In this document: positions 42,432-60,675 of the stretch, piece after piece | Layout: the number at the start of each line of letters is the position of its first letter | Position numbering within the stretch: the first letter of the stretch is position 1 | Position numbers and translations under genes: made by a program | Notes under the pieces: model-generated | What the model saw: only the letters and a program-made list of their open reading frames with translations | Told to the model about the DNA's origin: nothing | The model's database searches: none | Virus record (IMG/VR): IMGVR_UViG_3300031993_000008 | Span: 184,383 to 248,382 of that record | Length of the DNA: 64,000 nucleotides | Reading direction: 5' to 3' (one strand) | Origin: a virus | Taxonomy: Duplodnaviria; Caudoviricetes

Positions 42432-42908
42432 GATCAATAAAGGGGGTAAGATAATATAGACAGGTATAGATTATTGGGGAATGAATGAAGGGGAAATTGG
42501 GGATAAATGGTGGGATCTATGACATTTTCTGACATCCACCAGCCTTTTCTACCACTTTACTCCACTTTCACCCACTTTTTATAAGAAAATGTAATATGAA
42601 ATTAACTGAAAATCAATGATTTATAAATATACTCAAAATAGAGGGGTAAAATATATGAAAAAATAAATATACAACAACCCCATAGGAGTTTATCTCATAC
42701 CCTTCTCTATATAGTGTGTGTGGGGGAAGTCGCACGCCGCAATCGCCAAAAATCACCATTCTGGGGGTGACCCCCAAATACCCCTATTTTGGGGATATCC
42801 CAGAATTCCCCATTTTCCTGGAATTCCCCATTTTTGGGATCCTCCTCTTTTTGACCTTTTCTGACCATACCCCCAAAATGCCCATTTCCAGGATATCCCC
42901 ATTTTGAC

Positions 42909-42941
42909 CATTTTCCTGAATTCCTCATTTTCCTGAATTCC
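42909..42941 (+). repeat. CATTTTCCTGAATTCC x2 (17-bp period), variant at 42811
   Basis: Direct reading. Confidence 0.85.
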
Positions 42942-44202
42942 CTATTTTCTCGTTTTTCGCTGTCGTGGGGAAATGTGGAAATCTTGGTTTTTGGTGTTTT
43001 TGGTAAAAATGGCAGATCTCCCTATTTCCCCATTTCCCATATATGTAAAAAATAACAAAAAAGGTGTTTTCCCAGTAAAACTGTGTTTACCTGGAAACAC
43101 TGGTTTTTGAACCTTTTCCACTGTTTTCCCATAGGGTGAAAATGACAGATCTGCTGTTTTTGACCATATTTGGTTATATATGGGTATGATTTCCATCAGA
43201 TGTGGAAGATCCGGGGAAGTTTTCCTGGAAAATAGATGTAATATATGTGAAAAGTTTCAAGATGGAGTTTCTCCGGAGAGAAAAACTCTTCCCTGTAGAG
43301 ATCAAGCGGGATACAGATTGCCTCCCTGTAGAGATGAGGTCACCGCCATCCGCCACCGCAGGGTTGGACAGGTGTGGGTTGGAGTGGACAGGTGGTTGGA
43401 GATGGGATGGGCCTGGACCTGGACCCTGGTAGACAGTGTCTGTCCATCAGATGGAGATGAGGTATCCTGCTGGTGACCCATGTCTACCGGTGACTGGGTG
43501 TGGGCCTGCTGCTGGTACTGGACCTGGACCAAACTGTGGATACTGGATCTGCACAGACACTGTCTACCCTCCACAGTATGCCTGAGGGCACTTTTTGAGA
43601 TGTCAATCAGATAGGATCACACTGTCTACTTGGTTCTGGATACCATCAGAACCTTGGTGATAGCCTTCATCAACAAGATGAGGAGGAGATGAGATGTCAA
43701 TCTTGGACTTGGGTTGGCGGATGAGTCGCCACCGCAGATGGTGATGGGTATGTGGGTTGAAGACTTGGATTCAAGAAGTACTTCTTACATCAGGATGAGA
43801 TGTCAGGATGATGACCCATGCCAATGTCTGAAGTAGACAGTGTCTGGTGAGATGAGTCTCTAGTTCGAATATAGATTCCCACTGCTGTTGGATGAGATGT
43901 CCAGATCAGCACTGTAGTCAAAGTCACCTATGGGTGGGTTTGGATTTGAGTCTCTAGTTTGACTTGGGTGGTAGATGATGTCTGAAGTAGACAGTGGGTT
44001 TGGTACTGGACCAGGTCCTGGGCCTGGACCACTGTCAGATTCAGGTTCTGCTTCCCTGTTGTTCCCTGTTGATCCAGGATCTGCCACTGCTGTTGGACAC
44101 CTGCTGGAAATGGTATCCGGGATTTGAGTCTCTAGTTTGAGAAGAGTCACCTTGGTTCATTGAACCTTGGCGAAGATCATGATCATGTATACATGATCTA
44201 GT

Positions 44203-44241
44203 AAAAAATATCCCATCACAACTTCACAGTCATGATGGGAT
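44203..44241 (-). terminator. terminator closing the right-hand minus-strand operons
   Basis: ATCCCATCA...TGATGGGAT hairpin followed by a T run on the minus strand. Confidence 0.75.
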
Positions 44242-44278
44242 GAAAATTAAAAACAAAAATGCTATGCAGAAATATTAT

Positions 44279-44812
44279 TCAACCGATCTCTATAAGATTG
44301 ATGAGATGGTAACCTTTATACCCTTCCACTATTTTCCAGAGGAACTCCTTGAAGGAGATCTTCCTTCTCTCCGGAAGAGTCCAGTTGGTCATGTCGAATC
44401 CCAGTTTGTCCATCTCATTCCTGTAGTCATCCCTTTCCGGATGATACTCATACCTGGTGTTTACCTGGTAGGCAGTCACATGCAGGGTGGCCAACCAGGC
44501 AGGAAATCCTTCATCAGTGTTATGTCTCAGATCTGTCACCTTGGTGACCACATATTCATAGTGGTTGGGGTTGGACTTGTAATGGGCGGCGGGAACAGTG
44601 ACTCCCTTTCTGGGTTTGAGCAACCGGCAGTACTGTTCGGTGAAATGCTCGACAGGTATCCTGTCCTTGACCTCCCCTTCTCCGGAGGAGTAGTATCCCT
44701 GTGGTTCCGGGATATCAACAGTCTCGATCAGGGCACCGGACTCCTGTGATATGAAAGTGAGGTAAGGTGACCCACACTCTTGGGGATGATGATATATTAC
44801 GATTACGTTCAT
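44279..44812 (-). CDS. hypothetical protein
   Basis: 177-aa ORF in operon. Confidence 0.6.
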   Translation of the reverse strand: MNVIVIYHHPQECGSPYLTFISQESGALIETVDIPEPQGYYSSGEGEVKDRIPVEHFTEQYCRLLKPRKGVTVPAAHYKSNPNHYEYVVTKVTDLRHNTDEGFPAWLATLHVTAYQVNTRYEYHPERDDYRNEMDKLGFDMTNWTLPERRKISFKEFLWKIVEGYKGYHLINLIEIG

Positions 44813-44833
44813 ACCTCGTCTGTAGATTTCAGG

Positions 44834-45238
44834 TTATTTCAGGAACTTCTTGAGTTTGTAGTAGAAGTCATTATATGACCCGAGTTTGTCAAAGACGGCA
44901 TTGTCCTCACAGTACTTACAGATGTTCTCTATCAGTTCAGTGTTGACCTTCACCTTCCTGGGCCTTGAGATGACCTTGAAGAGATCCGGGTAGACTTCCA
45001 TATAAACCTCACCCTCATCATTGACATACTTTACAGGGAAGGGAAGGGTGCAGATCTTCTTCACCAGGATCTCATCATCTCCTTCTCTCACCCTGGTGAT
45101 TCCATCCTGATCAAGGTGTACATATCCATATTCGGAGTAGTACTCATCAAATGAGGATACCACCTTGAACTTCTTACCATTGATGATGACATCAGTTACC
45201 TGGATACCACCATCATTATTATGCAAATGCCTTTTCAT
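44834..45238 (-). CDS. hypothetical protein
   Basis: ORF in operon. Confidence 0.6.
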   Translation of the reverse strand: MKRHLHNNDGGIQVTDVIINGKKFKVVSSFDEYYSEYGYVHLDQDGITRVREGDDEILVKKICTLPFPVKYVNDEGEVYMEVYPDLFKVISRPRKVKVNTELIENICKYCEDNAVFDKLGSYNDFYYKLKKFLK

Positions 45239-45375
45239 AATTATTCAATTTCCTATTTTCTTTATGATGAAGACAATCATAAATCCCAATCCAAACCAGA
45301 AGAGGGATTTCGCTGTCGCCTTCGCCAATGATTTGAGTTCGCTCTTTGTCATATGTCTGTGGATTACTTTTGATT

Positions 45376-45681
45376 TCAGTGAAGTATCACCTGGATGTGG
45401 TATCCATCAGGGATGAAGACTTTCACCATTGATGATGGGTATGGTGCAAATTCATACTTCAACTTATAGTGATCCCAACTTTCCTTCAGGAGATCCTGCA
45501 TCTCTGTGTATGTCAGTCTACCGATATGATTCTCCTTGATGGACAGATCAACTTCAATGGTTCTGCTGTCGGGGTCAATCTTGAAGGTGTTGAAGTCCTC
45601 ATAGATCTTGTCGAACACCGGGATGTAGTCTGCTGATCCCTTGGGTTCATTTGGTTCTACCAATAGTCTGAACATAATCAA
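45376..45681 (-). CDS. hypothetical protein
   Basis: ORF in operon. Confidence 0.55.
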   Translation of the reverse strand: MIMFRLLVEPNEPKGSADYIPVFDKIYEDFNTFKIDPDSRTIEVDLSIKENHIGRLTYTEMQDLLKESWDHYKLKYEFAPYPSSMVKVFIPDGYHIQVILH

Positions 45682-46241
45682 CTGTTTTTGGATTTACTTG
45701 ACACTTCCTCAAAGTCTGTTGACCAACCTGCATCAGTCAATTTCTTGAGAGTCTCTCCATCACAAAGATAGACACTGACCTTGGAACAGTCACCCAATCC
45801 TCCATAACACTGGTCAGTCTTCTTGAGAATTCCTTTCTCCTCAAGTTCCCGGATCTTCTCAGGTGTGTTCCTGTAGAGACGCTCCTTGGATTTGGAGGTC
45901 TCCTCCGGGAAAAGCCAGAACTCATGCTGTCCATAGTAGGACATCTCTCCGACATGGATCTTGTGATCCCATTCCCTGGTTTTCCTGTCCAGCCACTCCT
46001 GGGTATCCGGGTTCTGATCTGCCTCGGTATACACTGTCCTGATTCCCAGTCCTAGAACCTTGTCTCCCTTCCTGACCTCAACCAGGGTGAAGAGTTTGGG
46101 ATGGCTTTCGATATATGCCATCACCTGGGTTTTCTTGACACTCATCTCCTTGGCGACCTCGGAGATCAGGGCAAAGTTCTGACAGTTGACCTTCTCGATC
46201 AGTCTTACTGTCTCCTTGACGTTTTGTATGTTAAGTTCCAT
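45678..46241 (-). CDS. hypothetical protein, possible HTH at N-terminus
   Basis: ISEVAKEMSVKKTQV resembles an HTH. Confidence 0.55.
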   Translation of the reverse strand: MELNIQNVKETVRLIEKVNCQNFALISEVAKEMSVKKTQVMAYIESHPKLFTLVEVRKGDKVLGLGIRTVYTEADQNPDTQEWLDRKTREWDHKIHVGEMSYYGQHEFWLFPEETSKSKERLYRNTPEKIRELEEKGILKKTDQCYGGLGDCSKVSVYLCDGETLKKLTDAGWSTDFEEVSSKSKNS

Positions 46242-46252
46242 ATCAGTCTATT

Positions 46253-46771
46253 TCAGATTGTGCAATCATCAACCACTATCTCCCAACCAGGGAATCTGAT
46301 CTCTGCCACCTTCCTGGCAACCTCCAGGAGTTCCTCCTTGTTCTCGAATCCGTTGGTCTTCTCACCGGGATGATAGAATTCCCATCTGTGTGGGTCATTC
46401 TTGATCTCCTCTTCGGTGACACCTCTGGCAACCTCTATGTCATATGATGATGACCATTTGTCTTTGAGTTCCCTGGACAGGTTCTTGTATTCCTCACCGA
46501 TGTATCCGCCGATAATATAACCTTCATCATTTATAATGCGGATACCATCACCGATGAGTTTGGCATAGTAGTGAACCGCTTCCCAACACGTTCCTATGAA
46601 GGATGTGATTTCTATCTTCACCTTCCTGGGTTCTCTGATTTGGAATGTCCATCCGGGATGTTCATTCAGATGGAAATCATTTCCGAAATCTATGGGGAAA
46701 ACATCAGGATACTCTCCCTGATCGATGGAATGATCCCTGGCATACTGTATGTTGTCATTCTTTATTTCCAT
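46253..46771 (-). CDS. conserved phage hypothetical protein
   Basis: ITSFIG...AVHYYA.L, RFPGW. Confidence 0.6.
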   Translation of the reverse strand: MEIKNDNIQYARDHSIDQGEYPDVFPIDFGNDFHLNEHPGWTFQIREPRKVKIEITSFIGTCWEAVHYYAKLIGDGIRIINDEGYIIGGYIGEEYKNLSRELKDKWSSSYDIEVARGVTEEEIKNDPHRWEFYHPGEKTNGFENKEELLEVARKVAEIRFPGWEIVVDDCTI

Positions 46772-46864
46772 AACGATTGCGCTTTATGGTTATGACAGGG
46801 AGTCCAGTGAAATGCACTCCACTGACAACTCCTGCTCAAACTCTCTGTATATCTCTTCCATATC

Positions 46865-47305
46865 TTACCTGTTAATTTTGTAGAACTCTGCAAATGACAT
46901 CTCGGGTTCCTTGATACCCCAATGTTCTGCAACTTCCTTGTGCCATTCATCAACAGTCTCGGGTTGATCAAAGTGGACACCCTTGAAAAGTTTCAGACCA
47001 TTCTTGGTTACATCACCTCCATCATATCCGCAGATGTTGAGGAAATATGTACCGTCAACCGTCTCCTCATATTCAACACAGGTGGAATACTTATCCAACC
47101 AATCAAGGAACAACTTCTTATCCTTGGATACTGTATTTGATAACTTCTTTTTCATAACCTTTGAATTTAAACAGCACCTACCTGAATCAATCAGACTCTC
47201 TACCACCTTCTTGGTTTCCTTCTTGATGTTCTCATCTTCAAAATGTATTATAGTTGTATTGTTTTTATTTACCAGAAACATAATAGTCTCCAACTCCATA
47301 ACCAT
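46865..47305 (-). CDS. hypothetical protein
   Basis: ORF in operon. Confidence 0.55.
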   Translation of the reverse strand: MVMELETIMFLVNKNNTTIIHFEDENIKKETKKVVESLIDSGRCCLNSKVMKKKLSNTVSKDKKLFLDWLDKYSTCVEYEETVDGTYFLNICGYDGGDVTKNGLKLFKGVHFDQPETVDEWHKEVAEHWGIKEPEMSFAEFYKINR

Positions 47306-47327
47306 TGGGATTCATAATGATTTGGGA

Positions 47328-47456
47328 TTAACTGTTCTTTACTCTGTTGTAAATCTCACTTGCAACATTGAGAACAATGTTACCTACCAATATTGCTACT
47401 CCAAACAGTATCACTGTTGTCACTACTGCTGCAAAGATAATTCCAAGACCTTTCAT
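47328..47456 (-). CDS. 42-aa single-pass membrane peptide, copy A (not in track)
   Basis: MKGLGIIFAAVVTTVILFGVAILVGNIVLNVASEIYNRVKNS; first gene after promoter. Confidence 0.7.
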   Translation of the reverse strand: MKGLGIIFAAVVTTVILFGVAILVGNIVLNVASEIYNRVKNS

Positions 47457-47499
47457 AACTGTTGTTTTTAATTGTTACTTATCTTTCTTATTTCTGATA

Positions 47500-47531
47500 T
47501 AAAGATAATGCTTTTATTTGGAACCACCAAA
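47500..47531 (-). promoter_or_regulatory. Bacteroidota-type early promoter
   Basis: TTTG(GTGG)-N20-TATCTTTA. Confidence 0.7.
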
Positions 47532-47598
47532 TATATTAACACTATTTAACAAAAATCTTTGGATTTCATATTTCGCAGGTCGTGGTCGTCAGGGGATT

Positions 47599-47832
47599 TC
47601 AGTTGGGTGTGTTCAGATTGTAAAGGAACAACTGGGGCATTCTCATCATTGATCTTGCCAGGTTGGCAGCTTCCATATATGTGGATACCATCTCGGCGGC
47701 ATACCTTGGGTCATTCATCATCCTGATTGGATCTGCCTTTCCTGATTCAACCAATGTGGATATTATGTCTTTGATCACTCTCTTGTTGTGATCTATTGCC
47801 TCTTCTATAGTCATTGTCCTATTATCTAACAA
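47599..47832 (-). CDS. hypothetical protein
   Basis: ORF in operon. Confidence 0.5.
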   Translation of the reverse strand: MLDNRTMTIEEAIDHNKRVIKDIISTLVESGKADPIRMMNDPRYAAEMVSTYMEAANLARSMMRMPQLFLYNLNTPN

Positions 47833-47907
47833 CTGTTGATTTCTGATTCAAATCATATCATCCTGATTTCCAATTAACTGTGACCTTGATTGGACAAAAT
47901 CGGACAA

Positions 47908-48078
47908 TCAGTATGTGTTGACATATTCAATATATGTACAGACGGCATACATACCAGGGTGTCTTGAACCCTTGGGCATCTTGAAGACCTGGAGGCCTTT
48001 ACCATAAGGTTGGTTTCTCCTCTCACATGCCTTGAGTGCGGCGGGTTTGCTTTTGAAGTATTTCCTTTCTCTTGCCAT
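47908..48078 (-). CDS. small basic protein (56 aa, not in track)
   Basis: MARERKYFKSK...VFKMPKGSRHPGMYAVC. Confidence 0.6.
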   Translation of the reverse strand: MARERKYFKSKPAALKACERRNQPYGKGLQVFKMPKGSRHPGMYAVCTYIEYVNTY

Positions 48079-48082
48079 AATA

Positions 48083-48532
48083 TTATAATGCTTCTACTAT
48101 TCTCTCCAACAGATCTTTGCTGATGGGCTTTGAATATGCCTTGTATCTGCCGGGTACCCAACCGATGGGCTTGAACTTCTCAAAGTATACACTGTGAGGA
48201 TCCTTGCAATTATCAAGTCTGCTCTGGAGATATTCCTTCCAGGTTTCCACCGGCTTTCCTGATTCCTTCAGATAGTCGAAAAGAAGTCTGACGGATTCCT
48301 TCCAGTCATAGTAATCTGCTGCCCAGGGTTTTCCTCCCTGCAAGTCTGAGAACCTGACAACCATTGTGATGAGTTTGCCTTCCGGTTTCTCAATCTTGTT
48401 GGGATTCATCTCTGCTACTGCATACATAGCATCCTCAACCAACTTCAACTGTTCATTGTGGATTTCCTCTATCTGCTTTCTCAGATCTGCCTTGGATTTC
48501 CCCAGCTCCTTTATTTTATCTGAAGTATTCAT
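48083..48532 (-). CDS. hypothetical protein
   Basis: ORF in operon. Confidence 0.6.
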   Translation of the reverse strand: MNTSDKIKELGKSKADLRKQIEEIHNEQLKLVEDAMYAVAEMNPNKIEKPEGKLITMVVRFSDLQGGKPWAADYYDWKESVRLLFDYLKESGKPVETWKEYLQSRLDNCKDPHSVYFEKFKPIGWVPGRYKAYSKPISKDLLERIVEAL

Positions 48533-48698
48533 TTTATTGCGGCATAAACTGTGACAATATAATTCGGATCTTTGTTTCCTTTCATTATCTCATCTTTAGC
48601 GAAGAGAACCAGGTCTGATTTCTCATACTTCAGGTTTCTCTCATCTGCTATGTTGAGAACCTTTATTATCTGGTCATTAAGAACCTTACTGTCTAATA

Positions 48699-48827
48699 TT
48701 AACATGACTTTACCTTATTATAGATTGCTTTTGCTACATCAACAATGATATTACCTACAAGTATTGCCACTGCAAAGATGATCACTGTTGTTACAATTGC
48801 TGCAAAGATAATTCCAAGACTTTTCAT
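48699..48827 (-). CDS. 42-aa single-pass membrane peptide, copy B (not in track)
   Basis: MKSLGIIFAAIVTTVIIFAVAILVGNIIVDVAKAIYNKVKSC; first gene after promoter. Confidence 0.7.
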   Translation of the reverse strand: MKSLGIIFAAIVTTVIIFAVAILVGNIIVDVAKAIYNKVKSC

Positions 48828-48871
48828 TGTTGTTCGTTTTTAATGTTGTTGTTTCTTGTTCCTTTCTGATA

Positions 48872-48903
48872 CAAATATAATAACATTATTTGGACTGACC
48901 AAA
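48872..48903 (-). promoter_or_regulatory. Bacteroidota-type early promoter
   Basis: TTTG-N20-TATATTTG. Confidence 0.8.
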
Positions 48904-49054
48904 TTTTTTAACACATTTTAACTGTTCTTTTTGTATTCTTGTATTTCACATCATCAAATATAAAAAGCAAGGGGCACTTGGCATCATTGTCCAGTGTCCC
49001 TCTGATTTCCTCTTCTCAAATGAGAAGTGAACTTTCGCAATTCGTTATCGTAGA

Positions 49055-49327
49055 TTATTTAACCTCTGATTCAACCTTTGGTTCACCATCTGGTTTTGGG
49101 TCTACCTTCTTGAATGACTTTATCTCTTTAAAGTCACAAGAACATCCATAATATACATCTCCGAAAGGAGGTTCAAAGATTCCTCCTCCTGGCCAACTGA
49201 AGTCTTCAACATCAAAGTTCACATCATAGTAAACTTCACCGGTGTATTCAACCTCAAGTTCACCTCTCATTATACCATTCTCAAGTTCATCCTTACTGAA
49301 CTTGGTAAATATGTTCCTGAATGCCAT
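49055..49327 (-). CDS. hypothetical acidic protein under late motif
   Basis: CATAAATA on minus strand at 49350-49357. Confidence 0.55.
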   Translation of the reverse strand: MAFRNIFTKFSKDELENGIMRGELEVEYTGEVYYDVNFDVEDFSWPGGGIFEPPFGDVYYGCSCDFKEIKSFKKVDPKPDGEPKVESEVK

Positions 49328-49371
49328 ACTCTTCTTAATTTGTATATTATATTTATGTCATATTGTCACTG

Positions 49372-50562
49372 TCAGATTGTCACCTCGGCATTGACCTCAT
49401 TTACCCAATCCTGAACGTTGGCATTGAATCCACCTCCGGAGGATTGCGGTTTCTGGTTGATGATGTCATCAGGGATCTGCCCAGCATCAACATAAACTGT
49501 GATGATTCCTCCAGTGGGCTTGGCATGCATCTCCTTGGTGATGTCCAGTGTGATAGTGTAACCGCAGCCGTTCCGCAGGGTGAACCCAATGCCAATGAAG
49601 TTCTTATCCAACTCAACTGCTGTGTTTCCTGACTTTGTAGTCTCTAGTGGGCAGATTCCTGGAAGTCCCCAGGTGAGTATCCTAGAAGAGATGATGTCTA
49701 CCGGCAGATCCTGACCATCCAGTGGGACAGTGTGGGCCTGCATCGGCTTTACATCATCAGTGGAGATGGAGATGGTGTTGTTGAATGTCTTCCTGGTGAA
49801 CAGTTCCACTCCCTGGGCTAACCCAGTGACAGTGATTCCCCTAGCACCTGTGATCCTGGATCCCTGTTGATCCCTGTTGTTCAGGATTATAACCTGATAC
49901 AGGTATATGAAGGAGTACGGCCGTAGTGCCGCATTTATCCTGTAGATGTATGTGATGTTCCCCTCCTCATCCACTTCCTTATCATACAGTGTCGGATCCT
50001 CATTGATGGTGAGATCTTGGACAAATGTGCCGAACAACTCATCAGGTTGATTATAGTCAATGTAGACCTTGGTTGTATCCGGCATGTCACTGTTCTCACT
50101 TTCACCTCTGGTTCTGACCCACCTTGCTTGGGAACTCATCCTGGTGGAGGCAGTGAATATCTCATAATCCTCACTCTGGTAAAATGATGTATACTCGGTT
50201 CCGAAGTTATAGAACATCATATCATATGTAGAACCTGTTGTCAAGGAGAGTCTCCCTCCATTAGAATCAAAGATCTTGAAGAATGAACTGTAACGCTGGT
50301 GACTGGTGGCATCCACATTATATATGACCCCCTTGATCAGATCGGGCTTACTGTATCCAACTATACCAAAACTGGTGGCAGACTCATCCCACTCATAGAA
50401 CCAGTCCATCTCCCAGTCAATACCCCACAACAGATCCAACCTGATGTCACTGATTTCAACTGTGATTTCTGTGCAATCCACCCTGAGATACAGATTCTTC
50501 CTACAGCAGGATGTGAATCCAATCAGTAATATTAGAACTATGGTGATGAATCTACTCTTCAT
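49372..50562 (-). CDS. DUF5119-like (Mfa/fimbrial-associated) lipoprotein
   Basis: Signal II lipobox LIGFTS-C; G.YDMMFYN, NQPDELF, GGGFNANVQDW C-terminus typical of Bacteroides DUF5119. Confidence 0.75.
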   Translation of the reverse strand: MKSRFITIVLILLIGFTSCCRKNLYLRVDCTEITVEISDIRLDLLWGIDWEMDWFYEWDESATSFGIVGYSKPDLIKGVIYNVDATSHQRYSSFFKIFDSNGGRLSLTTGSTYDMMFYNFGTEYTSFYQSEDYEIFTASTRMSSQARWVRTRGESENSDMPDTTKVYIDYNQPDELFGTFVQDLTINEDPTLYDKEVDEEGNITYIYRINAALRPYSFIYLYQVIILNNRDQQGSRITGARGITVTGLAQGVELFTRKTFNNTISISTDDVKPMQAHTVPLDGQDLPVDIISSRILTWGLPGICPLETTKSGNTAVELDKNFIGIGFTLRNGCGYTITLDITKEMHAKPTGGIITVYVDAGQIPDDIINQKPQSSGGGFNANVQDWVNEVNAEVTI

Positions 50563-51368: not shown

Positions 51369-51369
51369 A

Positions 51370-51624: not shown

Positions 51625-51627
51625 ATG

Positions 51628-51867
51628 TCAGTCGATTTCAGATTTATTATTCCACCTGTCTACCAGTTTCTTGACCAAGGGGATCATATACTTGGTTATC
51701 AGGAAAGGTATGACATAGAACACAAGACAAAGCAACAATACAGGCCACATGATTGCAACCAGGAGTTCCCCATCCTCTGCTTTGAAAAACTTCATAAGGA
51801 TCACCATACTCAGGAACATCATCAGGATGTATCCGAGTACCATCAGGATTATATACAGTGCATTCAT
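51628..51867 (-). CDS. small membrane protein, GYILM-WP paralog
   Basis: VLGYILMM...WP. Confidence 0.65.
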   Translation of the reverse strand: MNALYIILMVLGYILMMFLSMVILMKFFKAEDGELLVAIMWPVLLLCLVFYVIPFLITKYMIPLVKKLVDRWNNKSEID

Positions 51868-52109
51868 GATTTCTTATTCTTTCTACATTTATTCCAGAAC
51901 TCCAATTCCTCCCATGCACTTGATATTAGGGCAATGATTGCAAAAGGAATCAGTGCAATAAGATATATAAGACCCCACGCCAATGCAATTGGCCATATGA
52001 ATCCGGCTGCAACACAGTCAAATCTTTCCTGGTCGGGGAAGATCTTGTGAATGCAGACTGCTGTTATCACTCCCATCAGGATGTATCCCAATATAATCAA
52101 TGTAACCAT
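51864..52109 (-). CDS. small membrane protein, GYILM-WP paralog
   Basis: ILGYILMG...WP. Confidence 0.65.
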   Translation of the reverse strand: MVTLIILGYILMGVITAVCIHKIFPDQERFDCVAAGFIWPIALAWGLIYLIALIPFAIIALISSAWEELEFWNKCRKNKKS

Positions 52110-52134
52110 AGTTGTTTATTTGTCAGTCAATTTC

Positions 52135-52209
52135 AGAAAAAAGAAAGGTCTAACAATGCGAGAACTACAGAGTACCATCTCCAAACTCTCATCACATTGC
52201 CGACCTTTC
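52135..52209 (-). other. long imperfect RNA hairpin followed by a U run
   Basis: GAAAGGTC/GACCTTTC outer stem with further G-U-containing stems; intergenic. Confidence 0.6.
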
Positions 52210-52300
52210 AGAATTTTTGTGTGGTTTACCTCACTCGGGTCATTTCTGGTTCTTGGACTGTGTAGTGCAGACCTCAGGCTTTCAGGCCGGACATATTATG

Positions 52301-53080: not shown

Positions 53081-53110
53081 TTTCTCTTTTTTTAAATTAG
53101 ACGTTTGCAT

Positions 53111-53464
53111 TTATTCTTTGACGGACTTCACTGTACCACACTTTTTGCAACGGTACTGGGCAAAGTTTCCGCCATAACTCTCTCCTTCATAGGTGAAATC
53201 ATGGTCACACTTCTCGATCATGTGAAGATATTCAATATGGAGTTTCTTCATCCGGCGTTCAATCTTCTTCTGTTCAGACTTGACCGCCTTCTTGATCTTG
53301 GTGATCTCATCAGAAACTTTCTGACCCATATCCTTCACATTCTTGACAGACTCATTGATCTCTCTCAAGGCATTGTCCAATCCTGAATACAGTTCTGCGA
53401 GTGCGATATGCTCATCCCTGTTTTCCTGGACATCCTTGTTCTTGTACTTCTCTCTGGTAAACAT
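53111..53464 (-). CDS. coiled-coil protein with C-terminal Zn-ribbon
   Basis: CDH...CKKCG. Confidence 0.6.
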   Translation of the reverse strand: MFTREKYKNKDVQENRDEHIALAELYSGLDNALREINESVKNVKDMGQKVSDEITKIKKAVKSEQKKIERRMKKLHIEYLHMIEKCDHDFTYEGESYGGNFAQYRCKKCGTVKSVKE

Positions 53465-53946
53465 TATACCATATATTTTTTAATGTACTTGTCGGTAATT
53501 GTCTCTATCTCTTTCAACAGCGGTATATTGTGTGCAGTGTCATATTTTGTGTTCCAGGTATTGTTATTGTGTCTGTATGCCTGGATCAATGACATCGGAT
53601 GGACATTATTATATGTACTTACTACACACTTACACTTCTCGCTGGAAAAATAATTGTAAACACCTGTACAATCACCCAACATAGTTTTGTTTCCATCCAC
53701 TTCCACTTCTATTCCGACATGAACAAGACTCCATCTGTTGACGACATATTTGAACCATTTCTTTCTGATCCAATCTTCATGCCGGAAAATCACCACCCTA
53801 TAATTGATGTTCATTAACCGAAGGTACTTTGCCAGGACATATGCGGCAAAACAACAACCTCCATTGAACAAGTCAAACTCCTTTTGGTACTGGTTGATCT
53901 TCTGATCAAGTTCCCAAAGAAAACATCTGATATCTTCAGGTTTCAT
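53464..53946 (-). CDS. papain/transglutaminase-like Cys-His protein, paralog 1
   Basis: FNGGCCFAAY, HVGIE, GDC. Confidence 0.5.
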   Translation of the reverse strand: MKPEDIRCFLWELDQKINQYQKEFDLFNGGCCFAAYVLAKYLRLMNINYRVVIFRHEDWIRKKWFKYVVNRWSLVHVGIEVEVDGNKTMLGDCTGVYNYFSSEKCKCVVSTYNNVHPMSLIQAYRHNNNTWNTKYDTAHNIPLLKEIETITDKYIKKYMV

Positions 53947-53956
53947 ATCACTGGTG

Positions 53957-54442
53957 TTATTTACCAATACGCTTATCAAGGTATTTCTCCACGATTGCGT
54001 TGATATCCCTCATCAGCGGACCGTTGCACTCCCTATTGTAATAAGGGTTCCAATCATTGTGGCGGTATGCCTGAAGAAGTTCCATAGGATTGATCCTCTT
54101 GTAACTCCTTATATTATATTCATATCCAAACCTGTGGAAATATATATAAATACCGGCACAGTTACCGATTATCCACTTCAGTCCTCCAAGATCTACCTCA
54201 ATGGCGACATGTGCCACACCTTCACCATTGATGGCCTTATTGAACTTCTTTTCATTGAGGATCTCATCATACTGATAGAGAACCACATTATACTTTACTC
54301 CCAATTTCTTGAGGTTCTTGGCCAGGGCATATGCCGAGAAGCAGCAACCACCTGAAAACAGGTCAAATCTGTCTACATAATGGTTTATCTTCTGATCAAG
54401 TTCCCAAACCAACTCTCTCATTTCTTCTACTGTCAGTTTCAT
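53957..54442 (-). CDS. papain/transglutaminase-like Cys-His protein, paralog 2
   Basis: FSGGCCFSAY, HVAIE, GNC. Confidence 0.5.
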   Translation of the reverse strand: MKLTVEEMRELVWELDQKINHYVDRFDLFSGGCCFSAYALAKNLKKLGVKYNVVLYQYDEILNEKKFNKAINGEGVAHVAIEVDLGGLKWIIGNCAGIYIYFHRFGYEYNIRSYKRINPMELLQAYRHNDWNPYYNRECNGPLMRDINAIVEKYLDKRIGK

Positions 54443-54473
54443 ATTGTTCGGTGTTTGTTGTTTATCTTCATTA

Positions 54474-54505
54474 CAAAGATAATACATTTATTTCATACCA
54501 CCAAA
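54474..54505 (-). promoter_or_regulatory. Bacteroidota-type early promoter
   Basis: TTTG(GTGG)-N20-TATCTTTG, perfect consensus. Confidence 0.85.
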
Positions 54506-54617
54506 CATTTCGCTGACTTTTTTCAGAAAAAATCAGAAAAAATCAGTTTACTGAAAATCGCAGACCGTCACCGCAGATTTCACATCACTTGTCAGTCAAT
54601 TGCAGATTGGTCAGGAC

Positions 54618-55433
54618 TCAATATTCCTCAGGCTCTGATCTCTGGAGTTCCTCTCCGGAGTCGAATTCCCTGATCTTCCCAGTACTGTCAATATAAAAAG
54701 GTCTTCTGCAATCGAGATCTGCAATACAGTCAAGAAGAACCGGTTTCTCCCTGCACTGTGTATGACCGACTATGTTGAACCCATATGTCTTCTCTTCCGT
54801 AACCTTTGTCCATGATCTGATGTCAGACCATACTGGGGATCCTCCATATGGATACAGTGATCCTCCGAAACCTCGGAATATGTCATATTCTCCCAGATGT
54901 TCCAGTACTCTGAAGTCATAGGTCAGCCATGCTTCATTGAGTTTCCTGATGATGTTGAATTCAGGATCTGCCATCTCCTTCGGTGTCCATACTCCGGCTG
55001 CCCAGCCTTTCAGGATACCGGCATGACTGAAGACAAAGTGTCTGTCCGCAATCTCGCAATCGTATGCCAACCTGAACATCTCTCTGTTACCATTGAATAA
55101 TCCTGATATCACATCCTTGTGTCTCCTATCCATCCTGGAAGAGTTGATGTCTTCACTGATACAGTATCCACAGTCATGGTTTCCGATCAGCAAGGTTACC
55201 CGGTCAGGATAATGCTTTTTCAGTTCTACTATTCTCCTGAACCTGTCCAAGGATACCATCCTGGTGTCATCCACATCTCTCCACTCCTCTTCATGGGGAT
55301 ATTCATCCAGGTAATCTCCCAGGAAAACTATATGGGCATCGGTACTGCACAGTGTCTCACCGACCGGGTTGATCCAGAACTGACGGCCGTGAACATCAGG
55401 AATTATCAATATTTTAATGTCTGGTTTCTTCAT
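54618..55433 (-). CDS. calcineurin-like metallophosphoesterase
   Basis: DVHG, GDYLD, GNHD, HAG, GHT. Confidence 0.9.
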   Translation of the reverse strand: MKKPDIKILIIPDVHGRQFWINPVGETLCSTDAHIVFLGDYLDEYPHEEEWRDVDDTRMVSLDRFRRIVELKKHYPDRVTLLIGNHDCGYCISEDINSSRMDRRHKDVISGLFNGNREMFRLAYDCEIADRHFVFSHAGILKGWAAGVWTPKEMADPEFNIIRKLNEAWLTYDFRVLEHLGEYDIFRGFGGSLYPYGGSPVWSDIRSWTKVTEEKTYGFNIVGHTQCREKPVLLDCIADLDCRRPFYIDSTGKIREFDSGEELQRSEPEEY

Positions 55434-55719
55434 AGAACTTACCTTCACTGTTCCTAGAGTATGTTGTCACCACTTCAGTGTCCATCACATCTTGGCTCTC
55501 TCTTCTGATCATGCCATACATCTTCTTGACTGCCTCCTCTTCAGAATGGTAACCCATTGCATCATCTATGTTTCTGCTGTACATACGGTCTACATTGTAA
55601 TCTGCATAGTACTTCCAGATCAACTTACCTGTCAGCCATCTCTGGAACAGAGCCTGGACAACCCATCTCTCCTCACCACTTATCCTGGTGATCTTCACTA
55701 CTCTGAATTTGGTTATCAT
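55414..55719 (-). CDS. hypothetical protein
   Basis: ORF after TTGTTATATTT motif 55743. Confidence 0.55.
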   Translation of the reverse strand: MITKFRVVKITRISGEERWVVQALFQRWLTGKLIWKYYADYNVDRMYSRNIDDAMGYHSEEEAVKKMYGMIRRESQDVMDTEVVTTYSRNSEGKFYEETRH

Positions 55720-55806
55720 ATCAAATTGATTTTCTACATATTAAATATAACAAAAACACCAGGCAAATGCTTGTCTGGTGTAGATTTTTTTCGGTACTGG
55801 ACCCAT

Positions 55807-56607
55807 TTAATTGGGAAGTTTGAACCCCTTCAGGATCTTGGCGAGTTCAGGTATATGGATCTCATAGAACCAGGTGAATGTGAAGAGTATGTCTTCCACC
55901 ACTTCCTTACAGGATACAATATGATTCTTGAGTCTGGTATCCATAGGTTCATGCAGGGCTTCATCCAGATCCTCGCAACTGGTGAACCTGTCGTTCTTGT
56001 CACCGAAGTTGTAGAAGTCCTCTATAGGATGGTTCTGCACATCATACAGTCCTATGATGTTGTCGATTCCATCGGTGAAGATCACTGTTCCGTCTACTTC
56101 AAAGTGACCCTCCTTGTTCTTGTGCAGATTCTTGACCCATACATACTGGGAACCTATCTCATCATCTCTGAAGTACAGATACTTCCCTGTATAACTTCTG
56201 CTGAGAGTCCTGACAGTCATTCCATCCTTACCTTGGACAGGAACATCATCAGATTCCATCTTCTTAAGGATCACATTGCAGCATTCTATGCACTCATTCA
56301 GGATATCTGTATCCTGAAGTACGGGTCTCTCCTTCTCTATCTTCTTACAGAGATCACTGAATGTATTAACATCTCCCTTCCTGTAATATTCCGGAGCCGG
56401 AGAGTCATCGAAGACTGTATCGAAGATGTTGGTATATGCTACCTTCTTCAGGTCTTCCTTCTTGACCTTCAGCAGTGTCATAAAACTGAACTTGAGCAGT
56501 TCAGCCGCTTCCTTGGTGTTGGTTCTGAGTTCTGAACCTGTAAATTTCTGTTTGGACCCGGAGACTATGTTCTCTAGTCTGCAGATCGCTTTCTCTAGAG
56601 TCATCAT
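55807..56607 (-). CDS. hypothetical late protein
   Basis: TATAAATA at 56635-56642 on the minus strand. Confidence 0.6.
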   Translation of the reverse strand: MMTLEKAICRLENIVSGSKQKFTGSELRTNTKEAAELLKFSFMTLLKVKKEDLKKVAYTNIFDTVFDDSPAPEYYRKGDVNTFSDLCKKIEKERPVLQDTDILNECIECCNVILKKMESDDVPVQGKDGMTVRTLSRSYTGKYLYFRDDEIGSQYVWVKNLHKNKEGHFEVDGTVIFTDGIDNIIGLYDVQNHPIEDFYNFGDKNDRFTSCEDLDEALHEPMDTRLKNHIVSCKEVVEDILFTFTWFYEIHIPELAKILKGFKLPN

Positions 56608-56666
56608 GGTATTAGGAAAATTTGGGCTATATAGTATTTATAGAAATCCCAAATTATTTCCTGATT

Positions 56667-57188
56667 CTATGATGACCTTTTGGCTTTAAGTTCATCCCTG
56701 AGATCTGTCAAGATCTTACCTAATTCATTCCTACCCCAGTTGTCCACATGATCAGGGGCATCATTCTCATTGTATCCCACTCCCCAGATTCTGTCATACC
56801 AGGAAGCTTCCACAAAAGTCTTTCCTGAATACTTCGGATCCAGGAGTTTCTCCCTGAGATCTGAATTCTGGTAGAACTTATACCTCACTGCGGTGCGCAT
56901 ACGGTCTACCCTGACTTTGTCCCACTCCTCATCAACATAGTTCCTGACCTTCTGTCCAAGATCTCTTGCTTCCTGGGGAGTCTGACTCTGAAGGATCTTC
57001 TCCGCCATCTCCTGGTCATTAAAGAAGACGGCTTTGAACCACATAAACATCTGTTCACTGGAACTGAACTCAATGGGGTCACTTTCCAGGGGGACATAAT
57101 AGGGATCTGAAAACTTTATCTTACACTTGGTGAAGTTACACATAGGATGTTCCTTCCAGAAGAATACATATTTGTCGGTTATTCTCAT
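56667..57188 (-). CDS. NADAR (YbiA-like) family protein
   Basis: F.SSEQ.FM..KA, KFYQN, FVEAS..DRIWGVG, GRNELGKIL. Confidence 0.9.
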   Translation of the reverse strand: MRITDKYVFFWKEHPMCNFTKCKIKFSDPYYVPLESDPIEFSSSEQMFMWFKAVFFNDQEMAEKILQSQTPQEARDLGQKVRNYVDEEWDKVRVDRMRTAVRYKFYQNSDLREKLLDPKYSGKTFVEASWYDRIWGVGYNENDAPDHVDNWGRNELGKILTDLRDELKAKRSS

Positions 57189-57200
57189 AGATCTGCAATA

Positions 57201-57467
57201 TTAATAGGTAAATACTGTCTCCTGCATCTCGACTGTTTTTGTCTTGGTTTTCCGGATATACTTGAGGAGATCTTTCTTGGCAGTCTCCAAATCATCATAT
57301 GTATCCTTCAGACTCGAGTCAAACAGATAGTCCCAACCACCGGTGACAAACAATGCTGTCCACAGATTCCGGTACTGCAATTCATAATAGACATCATATA
57401 CAGCAGTCTCCTTTGTAACCGGATCTGTAGATTCTGTCCAACACTTGACGATACGATATTTCTTCAT
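57201..57467 (-). CDS. hypothetical protein
   Basis: KYRIVK N-terminus, similar style to 55414-55719. Confidence 0.55.
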   Translation of the reverse strand: MKKYRIVKCWTESTDPVTKETAVYDVYYELQYRNLWTALFVTGGWDYLFDSSLKDTYDDLETAKKDLLKYIRKTKTKTVEMQETVFTY

Positions 57468-57473
57468 AATTTC

Positions 57474-57833
57474 TTAAATATTGATCCCATCATAGTCGTG
57501 GGCATGTTCTGGAAAATACTTGCTGACAAAGTACTTGTTGAAAGGCACCGGATGACCCAACTCGGCATCCTTCATATCATCATATGTCAGGGATCTGCCC
57601 AGCCTTTTCTCCATGCAATCCTTACATAGGTATCCACCTCCAATCCAGGTCTCACCATCTTTCATATAATACTGTACCTGGGGTTCATCCTTGGCGATCT
57701 GTTCCCAGATTTCATCTCTGAGCATCGGGGACTCCTCACCGAAGTAAGGGAACTGGTGTCCACAGTTCCAGCACTTGCACTTGGATGCATCAGTTACCAG
57801 TTCTCTTTTCATCTTCCCAGTTAAACAGTCCAA
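57474..57833 (-). CDS. Zn-finger hypothetical protein
   Basis: CWNC...LCKDCMEKRLGR. Confidence 0.6.
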   Translation of the reverse strand: MDCLTGKMKRELVTDASKCKCWNCGHQFPYFGEESPMLRDEIWEQIAKDEPQVQYYMKDGETWIGGGYLCKDCMEKRLGRSLTYDDMKDAELGHPVPFNKYFVSKYFPEHAHDYDGINI

Positions 57834-57999
57834 AATAATCGAACAACCACCAGATGATCACATCAATGGGAACCATAATGGCGATCTGCCATCCATGCTT
57901 GATTCCTGACAGGACAGTAAATACCAGAACAGTGTTGACCAGCAATGTCAACAAGAAAACCAGTATGTCCATCCACATTCTTATGTATTTGGGTTTCAT
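57790..57999 (-). CDS. small membrane protein
   Basis: Two hydrophobic helices. Confidence 0.6.
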   Translation of the reverse strand: MKPKYIRMWMDILVFLLTLLVNTVLVFTVLSGIKHGWQIAIMVPIDVIIWWLFDYFGLFNWEDEKRTGN

Positions 58000-58230
58000 A
58001 TGATTTGAAATTAAAGGTTAAACACTACAGTTCCTCACACAGATCACTGGTGATGGACCAGATGAACATGTCAACAATGATCATCACAATAACTCCTAAA
58101 AAGGATGCCACCATACCTGCCTGGTGAAAGATGTTCAGACAGTATCCATTCAATAATGTCATCAGAATGAACACTATTACCTTGATGAAAATTTCCATAT
58201 GATTTGAAATTAAAGATTAAACACTACAGT
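57997..58230. repeat. 35-bp direct repeat (1 mismatch) spanning stop-spacer-start
   Basis: CATATGATTTGAAATTAAAG[G/A]TTAAACACTACAGT at 57997-58031 and 58196-58230. Confidence 0.9.
58025..58198 (-). CDS. 57-aa membrane protein (not in track)
   Basis: MEIFIKVIVFILMTLL...LCEEL, TAG stop. Confidence 0.6.
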   Translation of the reverse strand: MEIFIKVIVFILMTLLNGYCLNIFHQAGMVASFLGVIVMIIVDMFIWSITSDLCEEL

Positions 58231-58403
58231 CCATCACACAACCACTTGGCGAGGTGTTCAGCGATAAACCAAATCAGGATATCGGTGACAATCAGGATGA
58301 TACTTGTCAGGATAATGTTGACTCCTACAAAAAACATGTTGTACAACATTACATTGATAATGAATGTCAAAATGAAGATATAAAACTTTGTAACTGTTTC
58401 CAT
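58224..58403 (-). CDS. 59-aa membrane protein (not in track)
   Basis: METVTKFYIFILTFII...LCDGL, TAG stop. Confidence 0.6.
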   Translation of the reverse strand: METVTKFYIFILTFIINVMLYNMFFVGVNIILTSIILIVTDILIWFIAEHLAKWLCDGL

Positions 58404-58405
58404 AA

Positions 58406-58840
58406 TCAGTTCTTTTTGGTGAAACGTCCCTTTGCATCTCTCTTGAGATCCTTGGTCTTGGCAGACTTTTCAGACATATCGGTTTCAAAGTCATTATCCT
58501 TGATTCCCAGAACCTCTTCCCTGTAGGTCTCTATGTATTCCTGCATATAATTACTGTCGGTTGCAAATGCCTCCATCTGGGTTGCCAGGCTTTCTACCAG
58601 CAGATCCCTGGTGACCTTCACATTGTCCATCTCAAAGGATTTGACAATCTGTGACAACATATAGTTGATGAATTTCTCACCCAATGATTCCACGACGGTG
58701 CGGGCGATAAACCAGCCTGCCGGAGTGGGCTTTCTCATCATATAGTGCATGAAACACTTTTTCTTGTCTATTTCAGAAAACTTGTTGATGATCTCTGCCG
58801 GCAGATAGCCGTAAATCTCATTGTACTCTTGTCTTTTCAT
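58406..58840 (-). CDS. hypothetical protein
   Basis: C-terminal RDAKGRF motif. Confidence 0.6.
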   Translation of the reverse strand: MKRQEYNEIYGYLPAEIINKFSEIDKKKCFMHYMMRKPTPAGWFIARTVVESLGEKFINYMLSQIVKSFEMDNVKVTRDLLVESLATQMEAFATDSNYMQEYIETYREEVLGIKDNDFETDMSEKSAKTKDLKRDAKGRFTKKN

Positions 58841-59280
58841 TTGCTTATGCTTCTTTTGATAAAATCCAAACTCTGTTCATCTCTCTCCTCAATATCCTCA
58901 ATGATTGCCTTGACCATATTGTCAATCACCGATTCAGGACTCTCATCAGTGAGGAACTCCAGGCAGACCTTTCTGTCTTGGCAAATCTTCCAAAGGGCTC
59001 CCATTGTCCAGCAGGGAATATCTTCATCTTTCACTATAGGACTTCCTGTCACCAGAATTGTTTTTCCGTCTCTTGGAGACTTGATGTAAGACATATCCGC
59101 TGTTGTCGGATCCACTCCGATTCCCAACAGTTCCTGAACCTGGTCTATACTTGTGACTATCATATCAGTCAAATTTTTTGAGATCTTCCTTGAACTTGGC
59201 ATATATCCGGAGACTGTCTGCCTTATTCTCCTGAAGTCTTTTGATTTCTTTGGAATGGTAATTGATATGCCACTCTGCAT
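58837..59280 (-). CDS. hypothetical protein
   Basis: TSIDQ..ELL..G.DP.TADM...IPCWT.GAL; true start probably downstream of the tracked start. Confidence 0.55.
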   Translation of the reverse strand: MQSGISITIPKKSKDFRRIRQTVSGYMPSSRKISKNLTDMIVTSIDQVQELLGIGVDPTTADMSYIKSPRDGKTILVTGSPIVKDEDIPCWTMGALWKICQDRKVCLEFLTDESPESVIDNMVKAIIEDIEERDEQSLDFIKRSISK

Positions 59281-59809
59281 CCTCGATCAGCGAATTGCGG
59301 TAGTCTTCCTTTGTCTTCTCGAAACCTTCCTTGGTGGGTTCACCGCATTTTGCCAATTCATCATCATAATATGATGACTTGTTTATGGATATATCTATCT
59401 GATCGATGGCGAACTTCTTGAGTCCTTCGAATTCCTCATCACAGTTCCAGGATTCTATCTCCTCCTTTATCTTCAGGTAGTCTGCATAGTTCTCCAGATC
59501 CTTTTGTCTGGCCTTCTCAAGAGTTTTGATTCTGTCCTTGGTTTCAGAAATGTATTTCTCACACAGTTCATCATCAGACATATTTTGGATCTTCTCAAGA
59601 TTGCTCTTCTCACCATCCAACATCATCTGATGGTAGTCTATCGAGTGCTGATATGATTGGGTGAGGTCCTCGGTATAGTCATCCTGGATCTCCAGAGGTC
59701 TGTCCATCAGTTTGGTGCAGACTCCGAAACCGCGTAAACAAAGGTGGAGGAATGTCTTTGCATCCTTCACCTTACCGTTTTCTATAAAAGAAGTATAACT
59801 TGTGGGCAT
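59165..59809 (-). CDS. conserved phage coiled-coil protein
   Basis: MPTSYTSFI...F...C.RGFG N-terminus. Confidence 0.65.
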   Translation of the reverse strand: MPTSYTSFIENGKVKDAKTFLHLCLRGFGVCTKLMDRPLEIQDDYTEDLTQSYQHSIDYHQMMLDGEKSNLEKIQNMSDDELCEKYISETKDRIKTLEKARQKDLENYADYLKIKEEIESWNCDEEFEGLKKFAIDQIDISINKSSYYDDELAKCGEPTKEGFEKTKEDYRNSLIEDAEWHINYHSKEIKRLQENKADSLRIYAKFKEDLKKFD

Positions 59810-59842
59810 ATATTAGTAAATTTCAGACGATTGCGCCTGCGG

Positions 59843-60472
59843 TTAAACATCTTCCTCATCAAAATCAGAGTCACCCTCATCATCATCCATAGCCTTCATC
59901 TCGGCCTTCAGTGATTTGCGGGCTTCCTTTCTCATAATCTTGATAGCCTCCTTTGACTTTATGAACTTCTTGAGTTCATCTTCAATGAGACCGTCAACCT
60001 CCTTCTGGAAATCTTCCTCAGATGCCTCCTTCCAATCCAGACCTGTGATCTTCTCCAATGAGAACATCACCTTGTCAAGAATCTTGGGCATCTCCTCATC
60101 GGATGTACCCCTGAATTCCATCTTCTTGCGTTCCTTGATGGCGGCAATCAGGTTGTTGTAACAGAGCTGACCTTCTTCGGTCATCTTGCCGTCCTTGAAA
60201 AGTTTGATGGGAGTGTCATCCTTCTTCTTGGGACCAAACACTCTCAACAGTGAATCAAGGTTCTCACAGATGTGGACTTCTGTATAGCTGAAGTTGGCCA
60301 CATCATAACCGTATTTCTTCTTAAGGATACCAGGAACCTTCTCGGTCACCTCAAAATCATCTCCGGCAAGGAATCCCTTTGATGTAGGAAGTGATGCTTT
60401 GACCTTTCCCTTCTCTTCCGGAGAGAGGTCATCAAGTTGCCAAATTATCTTTGTAATCTTAACTGCTTTCAT
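59843..60472 (-). CDS. hypothetical early protein with acidic tail
   Basis: First gene after promoter 60516-60547. Confidence 0.65.
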   Translation of the reverse strand: MKAVKITKIIWQLDDLSPEEKGKVKASLPTSKGFLAGDDFEVTEKVPGILKKKYGYDVANFSYTEVHICENLDSLLRVFGPKKKDDTPIKLFKDGKMTEEGQLCYNNLIAAIKERKKMEFRGTSDEEMPKILDKVMFSLEKITGLDWKEASEEDFQKEVDGLIEDELKKFIKSKEAIKIMRKEARKSLKAEMKAMDDDEGDSDFDEEDV

Positions 60473-60515
60473 AATTATAGTTGTTTATTTTTATATGATC
60501 TTCTAATCTCCTCTA

Positions 60516-60547
60516 CGAATATACGGGTTTAAAACGAAACCACCAAA
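60516..60547 (-). promoter_or_regulatory. Bacteroidota-type early promoter
   Basis: TTTG(GTGG)-N20-TATATTCG. Confidence 0.65.
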
Positions 60548-60675
60548 TTTTTTAACATCTTTTTTGAATTTATTTTTTGATGTCGGTGGATTGCAGGTTT
60601 CGCAGTCCGCAACCGCAGTAGAGTATATATAAGTATTTATACATCTGCCAATTTCGGATCAGGAAATTACAGTGT

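Follow-up and report, generated by a model that had tools for sequence, protein, structure and literature searches.

A polar, conserved triple-CG box at early-gene boundaries in a clade of CpG-depleted rumen jumbo phages

The last 64 kb of a single 248,382-bp jumbo phage record (IMG/VR record IMGVR_UViG_3300031993_000008, positions 184,383 to 248,382; hereafter the window, 64,000 nucleotides numbered from its first letter) carry a short, dispersed element, here called the triple-CG box, that recurs in the early regions of related phages. It is a functional cis-element built from three half-sites in direct orientation, all of them a CpG with purine flanks when read in the sense of the early genes, set 6 and 7 (±1) bp apart. 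It points almost always in the direction of transcription, starts for the most part just behind a stop codon, is associated with one class of host-type early promoter, and is limited to one clade of CpG-depleted jumbo phages from cattle-rumen metagenomes. On present sequence evidence it is a real, conserved and polar component of a novel boundary cassette. Our tentative preference is for a double-stranded DNA operator, possibly one sensitive to CpG methylation; we infer that a protein binds the box, that the duplex is its substrate and that transcription is affected.

An earlier note on this DNA, made from the letters of the window, had described seven copies of the pattern YCGY-N3-YCGY-N2-YCGY in one orientation. 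All seven are present, all on the plus strand, and they are the total for the 248,382-bp record when both of its strands are scanned. On the gene-sense strand the motif reads RCGR-N2-RCGR-N3-RCGR, as the early genes lie on the minus strand, and boxes are accordingly entered as minus-strand features in Table 1. No match was found in 100 dinucleotide shuffles, and a first-order Markov model of window positions 42001-64000 alone predicts 0.0025 sense-orientation matches against the 7 observed; thus, local CG richness is no explanation. When all CG-CG-CG spacings from 2 to 15 were tabulated, the (7,6) class proved the commonest, with CG pairs 6 or 7 apart two- to three-fold above background, and with a looser pattern the polarity was still 14 to 1. 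The impression that the DNA is CG-poor was also correct, the CpG observed/expected ratio being 0.21 for the whole genome and 0.4-0.5 between 52 and 64 kb of the window. The spacing variants that the note had listed exist as well (28556, 33001, 45311 and 55047), as does an inverted copy at 59827-59842; the variants at 28556 (inside the smpB open reading frame, ORF) and 55047 (inside ORF 54618-55448) may be chance occurrences. As for the three copies assigned to a non-coding island, the one at 42730 is kept with its flanks in a relative, whereas those at 42950 and 43343 match the refined consensus poorly.

Conservation in related phages, a comparison that the note had proposed, bears the motif out, since the box recurs in every relative that shares the early region. 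In G002, an IMG/VR relative of 411 kb with 69% identity in a 1242-amino-acid protein, 12 copies lie in one orientation against 1 in the other, with none for a reversed-pattern control, and the 13 strict copies fall between 35 and 89 kb. Three more loci were reached through homologues of the early protein encoded at 53957-54487, namely L116, L118 (the same as L119 and L120) and L121 (the same as L122), and these hold 7, 7 and 6 strict sense copies and 0, 0 and 1 antisense ones. With L149, L169 and L213, which were added by a promoter-based scan of metagenome contigs, the strict copies in eight loci come to 47 in gene sense (46 distinct) against 2 antisense, for an expectation of 0.001-0.01 per locus. 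The gene-sense consensus is YY(T/G)-RCGAY-N-RCGA-NNT-GCGA, in which the first CG spacing is always 6 and the second is 7, occasionally 8 or 6. Boxes are retained even where the early proteins of two phages share only about 40-55% identity, the genes that flank them often differ from phage to phage, and similar boxes are found behind non-homologous ORFs. At the orthologous site behind the Metallophos gene of four phages, the CGs, purine flanks and spacing are kept and the remaining bases differ. All of this agrees with the earlier remark that only the CGs and their flanking pyrimidines (purines in gene sense) are conserved, which had suggested a protein reader: CGs, flanks and spacing are held while the spacers vary. 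The dispersed, oriented system that the note had proposed is therefore borne out, and the system is under selection. A consensus scan of IMG/VR returned scattered single matches only, G002 excepted, and the distant relatives G001, G003, G004 and G005 have neither gene Y (see below) nor a convincing box. TCGT-rich matches in G003 were discounted, as they appear to lie in coding sequence.

The setting of the box is a boundary cassette of 60-120 bp, in which the box is followed by an optional hairpin/T-run terminator or a CTGAAATYCACTGA element, then by an A-rich tract, and then by a host-type promoter of the Bacteroidota kind (-33 TTTGGTRG, -7 TAnnTTTG). The box starts at a median of about 5 nt past the upstream stop codon, with most copies between -1 and 24 nt; the boxes of one subfamily overlap with a TGA stop. 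For most direct boxes (30 across five loci), a TTTG-N19-21-TAnnTTTG promoter begins 21-63 nt downstream. What lies between is variable: some cassettes have the recurrent CTGAAATYCACTGA element and then the A-rich tract, and others have the A-rich tract alone. A clear hairpin with a T-run is present in 9 cassettes (5 of them independent), beginning 1-14 nt past the box, and many others show only CTGAAATYCACTGA or nothing. The reversed order of terminator, box and promoter occurs in two independent cases, one at L116 13796 and the other a box downstream of a conserved non-coding RNA (ncRNA). Boxes that fall within a hairpin are isolated copies only.

Elements like CTGAAATYCACTGA are found in the window at 59813-59826, 60572-60585 and 52122-52135 (minus strand), with many copies in relatives; they adjoin boxes in both orientations, follow terminators and precede start codons, and in some cassettes the terminator hairpin owes its loop and its 3′ arm to such an element. 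Strong terminator hairpins of a second class have no box and are directly followed by TTTTTGTTATAT (window 55757-55780, minus strand, and several sites in G002, L116, L118 and L121); this combination may mark another type of promoter or boundary.

The promoter association is specific to one class. A box lies within 140 nt upstream of 21 of the 25 class-A (TTTGGTRG) promoters, while TTTGGA-type promoters, which are spread genome-wide, are mostly without one (7 with, 18 without, on the sense strand). A set of 124 metagenome-contig promoters with the layout AAATTTGGTGG-N14-18-TATCTTTG includes only 4 with a box, all 4 on low-CpG contigs that are taken here to come from the clade; for look-alike promoters on unrelated metagenome contigs the count is 0 of about 120. 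A general Bacteroidota promoter element is ruled out by its absence from these look-alikes. Hence the early-promoter link drawn in the earlier note is real, but the box is not a simple promoter-upstream site, since it adjoins the stop codon of the gene before; the distances from box to TTTG, given there as 42, 132, 53 and 53, were each found to be 1 nt shorter (41, 131, 52 and 52 nt). A scan for sigma-70 promoters gave no excess, with 60 found and 50.9 expected.

Table 1. Boxes, promoters and associated genes in the window (window coordinates; for boxes, the strand is that of the sense reading)
Coordinates	Strand	Feature	Context
60600..60616	-	Triple-CG box, sense GCGGTTGCGGACTGCGA	59 nt past stop of ORF 60676-61170; 52 nt upstream of -33
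60516..60547	-	Host-type class-A promoter, -33 TTTGGTGG, degenerate -7 TATATTCG	Precedes conserved early gene X
59843-60472	-	Gene X	Conserved early gene, kept like Y in all box-bearing phages
59827..59842	+	Inverted box, spacing 6,6	Intercistronic gap X/Y; without promoter; position kept in five phages
59165-59809	-	Gene Y
54558..54574	-	Triple-CG box, sense GCGGTGACGGTCTGCGA	43 nt past stop of Metallophos-like ORF 54618-55448; -33 at +52; weak hairpins/T-runs downstream; orthologues L116 9853, L118 9872, L121 9873
54474..54505	-	Class-A promoter, TTTGGTGG ... TATCTTTG	Precedes ORF 53957-54487
49035..49051	-	Triple-CG box, sense ACGATAACGAATTGCGA	3 nt past stop of ORF 49055-49327; next promoter 131 nt downstream
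48872..48903	-	Host-type promoter, TTTGGTCAG ... TATATTTG
47573..47589	-	Triple-CG box, sense ACGACCACGACCTGCGA	9 nt past TGA of ORF 47599-47832; -33 at +41; GAAATCC, weak hairpin and T-run downstream, in that order
47500..47531	-	Class-A promoter, TTTGGTGG ... TATCTTTA
45310..45325	-	Spacing variant (6,6), sense GCGAAGGCGACAGCGA	50 nt past ORF stop; no promoter downstream
43343..43359	-	Island pattern match, GCGG units	Membership uncertain
42950..42966	-	Island pattern match, poor fit to refined consensus	Membership uncertain
42730..42746	-	Box copy in non-coding repeat island	No promoter downstream; kept with flanks in L116 (19539)

Similar polarity does not extend to one conserved site. Genes X and Y are kept in five phages, with 40-43% (X) and 46-56% (Y) identity to the window proteins, and in 5 of 5 phages the short gap between them contains an inverted box, with no promoter there. 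In two phages this inverted box abuts the Y start codon, and otherwise it stands 17-26 nt before it. The confident AlphaFold models of X and Y (predicted local distance difference test scores of 85 and 86) give X an N-terminal alpha/beta portion together with a long helix and an acidic tail, and give Y an all-helical structure.

The CpG content of the box must be seen against that of the genome, where the dinucleotide odds are 0.21 for CG, 1.36 for TG/CA and 0.57 for GC. This picture fits CpG methylation followed by loss through deamination, in which case the CpGs retained in the boxes would be strongly selected. At least three C5 cytosine methyltransferase genes are located outside the window at G000:C1:20130-24872 (locus L245). 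The catalytic part of one is of the HhaI type. A second gene is split or permuted, with M.MpeI (4DKJ/8C56) as its best solved relative. M.MpeI is CG-specific (PMC10899764). CpGs within CCGG are spared (414 of 1744). The methylation-sensitive switch, one of several roles that the earlier note had floated, is made more plausible by the methyltransferases, including the M.MpeI-like one, together with the scarcity of CG and the surplus of TG/CA.

From these observations, the operator that we tentatively prefer would work as follows. A clade-specific protein, either made early by the phage or brought in with the virion, would read the box as duplex DNA, binding the three half-sites side by side. 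Once bound, it would govern the activity of the adjacent early promoters in a co-ordinate manner, or block run-through from upstream genes into those promoters, or both. The read-out may depend on methylation of the three box CpGs, because the phage has several C5 methyltransferases and shows CpG-to-TpG decay. A protein reader is likelier than base pairing, since the spacers vary freely and changes in them are not matched by changes in the inverted copy that the same phage carries. A duplex site is favored by the conserved inverted copy, by the conserved island copy, by the two boxes that follow a terminator, by the tie to one promoter class, and by the lack of selected single-strandedness; in predicted sense RNA, the single-strandedness of the box is 0.43, versus 0.43 with shuffled flanks.

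Several results weigh against this operator. The distance between box and -33, at 21 to 63 nt, has no significant helical phasing (Rayleigh p about 0.1), and so variable and unphased a distance is unusual for an activator or repressor that touches RNA polymerase. Moreover, the 5 independent cassettes ordered stop codon, box, terminator hairpin, promoter place the box inside the upstream transcript, and at least 4 independent direct copies have no promoter downstream at all (G002 35674, L116 14644, L118 12567 and L121 16190), the G002 box preceding a terminator shared by convergent genes. The variable distance, this order of elements and the promoterless copies argue against a classical operator and favor a co-transcriptional element. 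Nor was a trans-acting factor identified: Pfam and PHROGs searches with nearly all early ORFs of the window detected no nucleic-acid-binding domain, and a Foldseek comparison of the X and Y models with the PDB returned nothing below E 0.09 and no informative fold match. Searches of the phage record, which is 67% complete and to that extent limits claims of absence, revealed no NusG-like gene, no tyrosine recombinase (PF00589) and no sigma region 4, and one sub-threshold match to sigma region 2.

The co-transcriptional alternative, which we rank next and consider somewhat unlikely, is that the box acts on the nascent RNA or the exposed non-template strand, shortly ahead of the terminator or boundary, where a reader protein would decide between termination and read-through or would mark a site of processing or stability. 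The near-absolute sense polarity (47 to 2) speaks for it, as do the start of the box close behind, and in one subfamily over, the stop codon, the short interval between the end of the box and the hairpin in all 9 terminator cassettes, the existence of boxes without any promoter, and the free distance between box and promoter. Yet the conserved inverted copy is senseless for a strand-specific RNA site, and two independent boxes lie downstream of a terminator. Equally awkward are the terminator-like hairpins of these regions, about 20 of 31 of which have no box, while many boxes have no hairpin; add to this that single-strandedness is not selected and that no NusG-like gene was seen in the record. 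Control of this sort would resemble the nut/put type or the HutP/TRAP type. The nut sites of lambda, the put sites of HK022 and the sites for HutP and TRAP are all polar and are transcribed before the terminators of early operons, and those of HutP and TRAP consist of repeated short units with short spacers. The triple-CG box is likewise polar and ahead of terminators, but it has no boxB-like hairpin, there is one box per boundary rather than per operon, and the conserved inverted copy does not fit the parallel. The lambda-type arrangement, in which boxA and a boxB hairpin follow an early promoter, was not found, the box being hairpinless and placed behind stop codons and upstream of promoters. 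A resemblance to E. coli ops (GGCGGTAG..) was rejected, as the matching spacer bases are not conserved among boxes.

A recombination site, at which early gene cassettes are inserted, lost or shuffled by an integron-like mechanism or through PeSL-like short homology (PeSLs, promoter-early stem-loops, are taken up below), seems to us improbable, despite a series of suggestive junctions. In L121, a 70-aa gene is bracketed by direct repeats of 33 nt whose ends coincide exactly with the 3′ edge of the box, and in the orphaned copy one CG has been lost and is now TG; two further extra genes of L121 each end in a box of their own and have no promoter. Cassettes are where breakpoints cluster when L118 is compared with L121, and the same is true of the rearrangements that separate L116 from L118. 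In other rumen runs, related strains have contigs in which 54483 is joined to 60540 and 47507 to 48887, in both cases at promoter cassettes. However, other junctions are inside the promoter or the end of the upstream gene and not at the box, so that plain homologous exchange between repeated cassettes suffices. The same exchange mechanism has been proposed for the PeSLs of T4-type phages (PMC4122927, PMC2839356). A crossover site would also leave the tie to one promoter class unexplained. Integron attC sites are polar and directly follow the stop codon of every unit in arrays of small genes that all run one way, with inverted core sites that are acted on by the integrase IntI. The box shares this polar post-stop placement in a one-directional array; most units here, though, have their own promoter, and the attC inverted repeats (R''/L''-L'/R') are missing, the box being three direct repeats without a conserved inverted partner. 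For an IntI-type tyrosine recombinase, PF00589 had no match in the 67%-complete record (G000). Just as improbable, in our estimate, is the wider proposal that the box, as a polar site behind each stop, is the recognition or crossover point of an integron-like exchange of early-gene cassettes. In a second novel reading, a protein might sense methylation of the three CpGs, tell parental from newly replicated phage DNA and so switch early cassettes. As an observation in its own right, early-gene mosaicism is evident at strain level, with contigs that skip and rejoin at window positions 54483/60540, 47507/48887 and 54489/56628.

The two remaining explanations we hold to be more doubtful again. The box could be a functionless passenger, spread with a repeated terminator/promoter cassette, and the cassettes are clearly interrelated and copied around; but it is hard to credit a passenger whose three CpGs persist in the face of genomic CpG loss while the neighboring bases drift, and which is retained both away from cassettes and between phages with early proteins as divergent as those described above. 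Least probable of all is RNA-RNA pairing, in which direct boxes in early mRNAs would pair with the inverted copy in the gene Y leader, or the reverse, and control translation or decay. The inverted copy is well placed for this, abutting the Y start codon or preceding it by 17-26 nt in the five phages, and is partly complementary to direct boxes by construction. The spacers, however, differ freely among direct boxes and show no co-variation with the inverted copy of the same phage, and pairing would rest on three isolated CG cores. In any case, the duplex operator stays at the head of our ranking, ahead of a site on nascent RNA or the non-template strand, then recombination, passenger and pairing in that order, with the remainder of our confidence left to mechanisms not considered here. 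Nothing in the analysis supports the role in genome entry or partition that had also been suggested.

The earlier note had not recognized the box as any described motif, and literature searches found no described equivalent. By analogy, the architecture of the cassette resembles known PeSLs of T4-type phages, which are the closest described arrangement (PMC2839356, PMC4122927). Both are short composite cassettes of terminator and early promoter that are repeated many times, concentrate where small ORFs vary and lie at the points of indel or replacement that distinguish related phages. Here, too, the repeated unit includes a host-type early promoter and is found at indel/replacement junctions (L118, L121, L116 and the strain joints). 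Unlike in PeSLs, the promoter is of the Bacteroidota type (-33 TTTG, -7 TAnnTTTG) rather than sigma-70 and the stem-loop is optional; the sigma-70 consensus and T4-type lineage of PeSLs are not shared, the relatives being Bacteroidota jumbo/huge phages. The triple-CG box at the upstream edge has no described PeSL counterpart.

Other systems offer partial likenesses. The C1 operators of P1 are dispersed and asymmetric, and sites of the P1 C1 or Spo0A type overlap or closely adjoin their promoters. Boxes for the host regulator Spo0A lie near the early promoters of phi29 and Nf (PMC2731898). The triple-CG boxes are like both kinds of site in being many short, oriented protein sites tied to early promoters for co-ordinate control, and differ in that the distance is 21 to 63 nt, a terminator may intervene and some copies are promoterless. 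With regard to geometry, we considered a repressor that binds repeated short units. The omega protein of plasmid pSM19035 is a ribbon-helix-helix repressor whose operators are tandem 7-bp heptads, direct or inverted, bound side by side. The 6-7-bp direct-repeat period and the tolerance for direct and inverted copies are shared with the box, but the analogy is one of geometry only, for the sequences are unrelated and no ribbon-helix-helix protein was identified here.

From 44 kb to its end, the window has small, mostly unannotatable genes, all on the minus strand. Among the products of the window are SmpB, a Ro/TROVE-like protein, a GH2 fusion and a DUF5119 fimbrial-type protein. A 1242-amino-acid protein has matches solely in huge/jumbo phages of Bacteroidota, at 24-34% identity. 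The DNA of the phage was detected in a bovine gut metagenome run, with shorter stretches in further runs from gut and bovine gut, and no RNA run was among those with a match. No close relatives emerged when the deposited phage collection was searched for near-identical DNA, and two early proteins searched against IMG/VR returned none.

Two non-coding regions deserve mention. A candidate for a conserved structured ncRNA of about 165 nt is found in the early region of five phages (window 52125-52292, minus strand; L118 12832-13000, L121 12566-12733, L116 11940-12108 and G002 73826-73995), laid out as a conserved 5′ part, a long hairpin and a T-run. RNAalifold gives it 32 pairs, 14 with compensatory changes, and it has no Rfam match; in four phages it is flanked on both sides by a triple-CG box. 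Given the phage-encoded Ro/TROVE-like protein and SmpB, a Y-RNA-like role is conceivable by analogy. Rfam 15 at gathering score gave no match in the window and only tRNA in L116, L118 and L121; a tRNA gene is located in the early region of each of these relatives (L116 16505-16576, L118 17704-17775 and L121 18147-18218), and ARAGORN found none in the window. The second region is the non-coding island at window 42300-43200, in which an AT-rich core separates GGGGAAAT-type arrays from CCCCATTTT-type arrays. It carries 12-nt and 17-nt periodic repeats in addition to one conserved box copy and could be an origin-like region.

Very little has been described of the organization of early transcription in uncultured Bacteroidota jumbo phages of the rumen and gut. 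The box, the optional terminator and the host-type promoter amount to a testable regulatory grammar that is common to several phage genomes and tied to the sites at which early genes are swapped. With three CpGs that are kept against a strong genome-wide loss of CpG, in a phage that has several cytosine methyltransferases, the box is a promising starting point in the search for a new sequence-specific reader, which may be sensitive to methylation. From the more practical standpoint, the box can be used as a marker for early regions and cassette borders in related metagenomic contigs.

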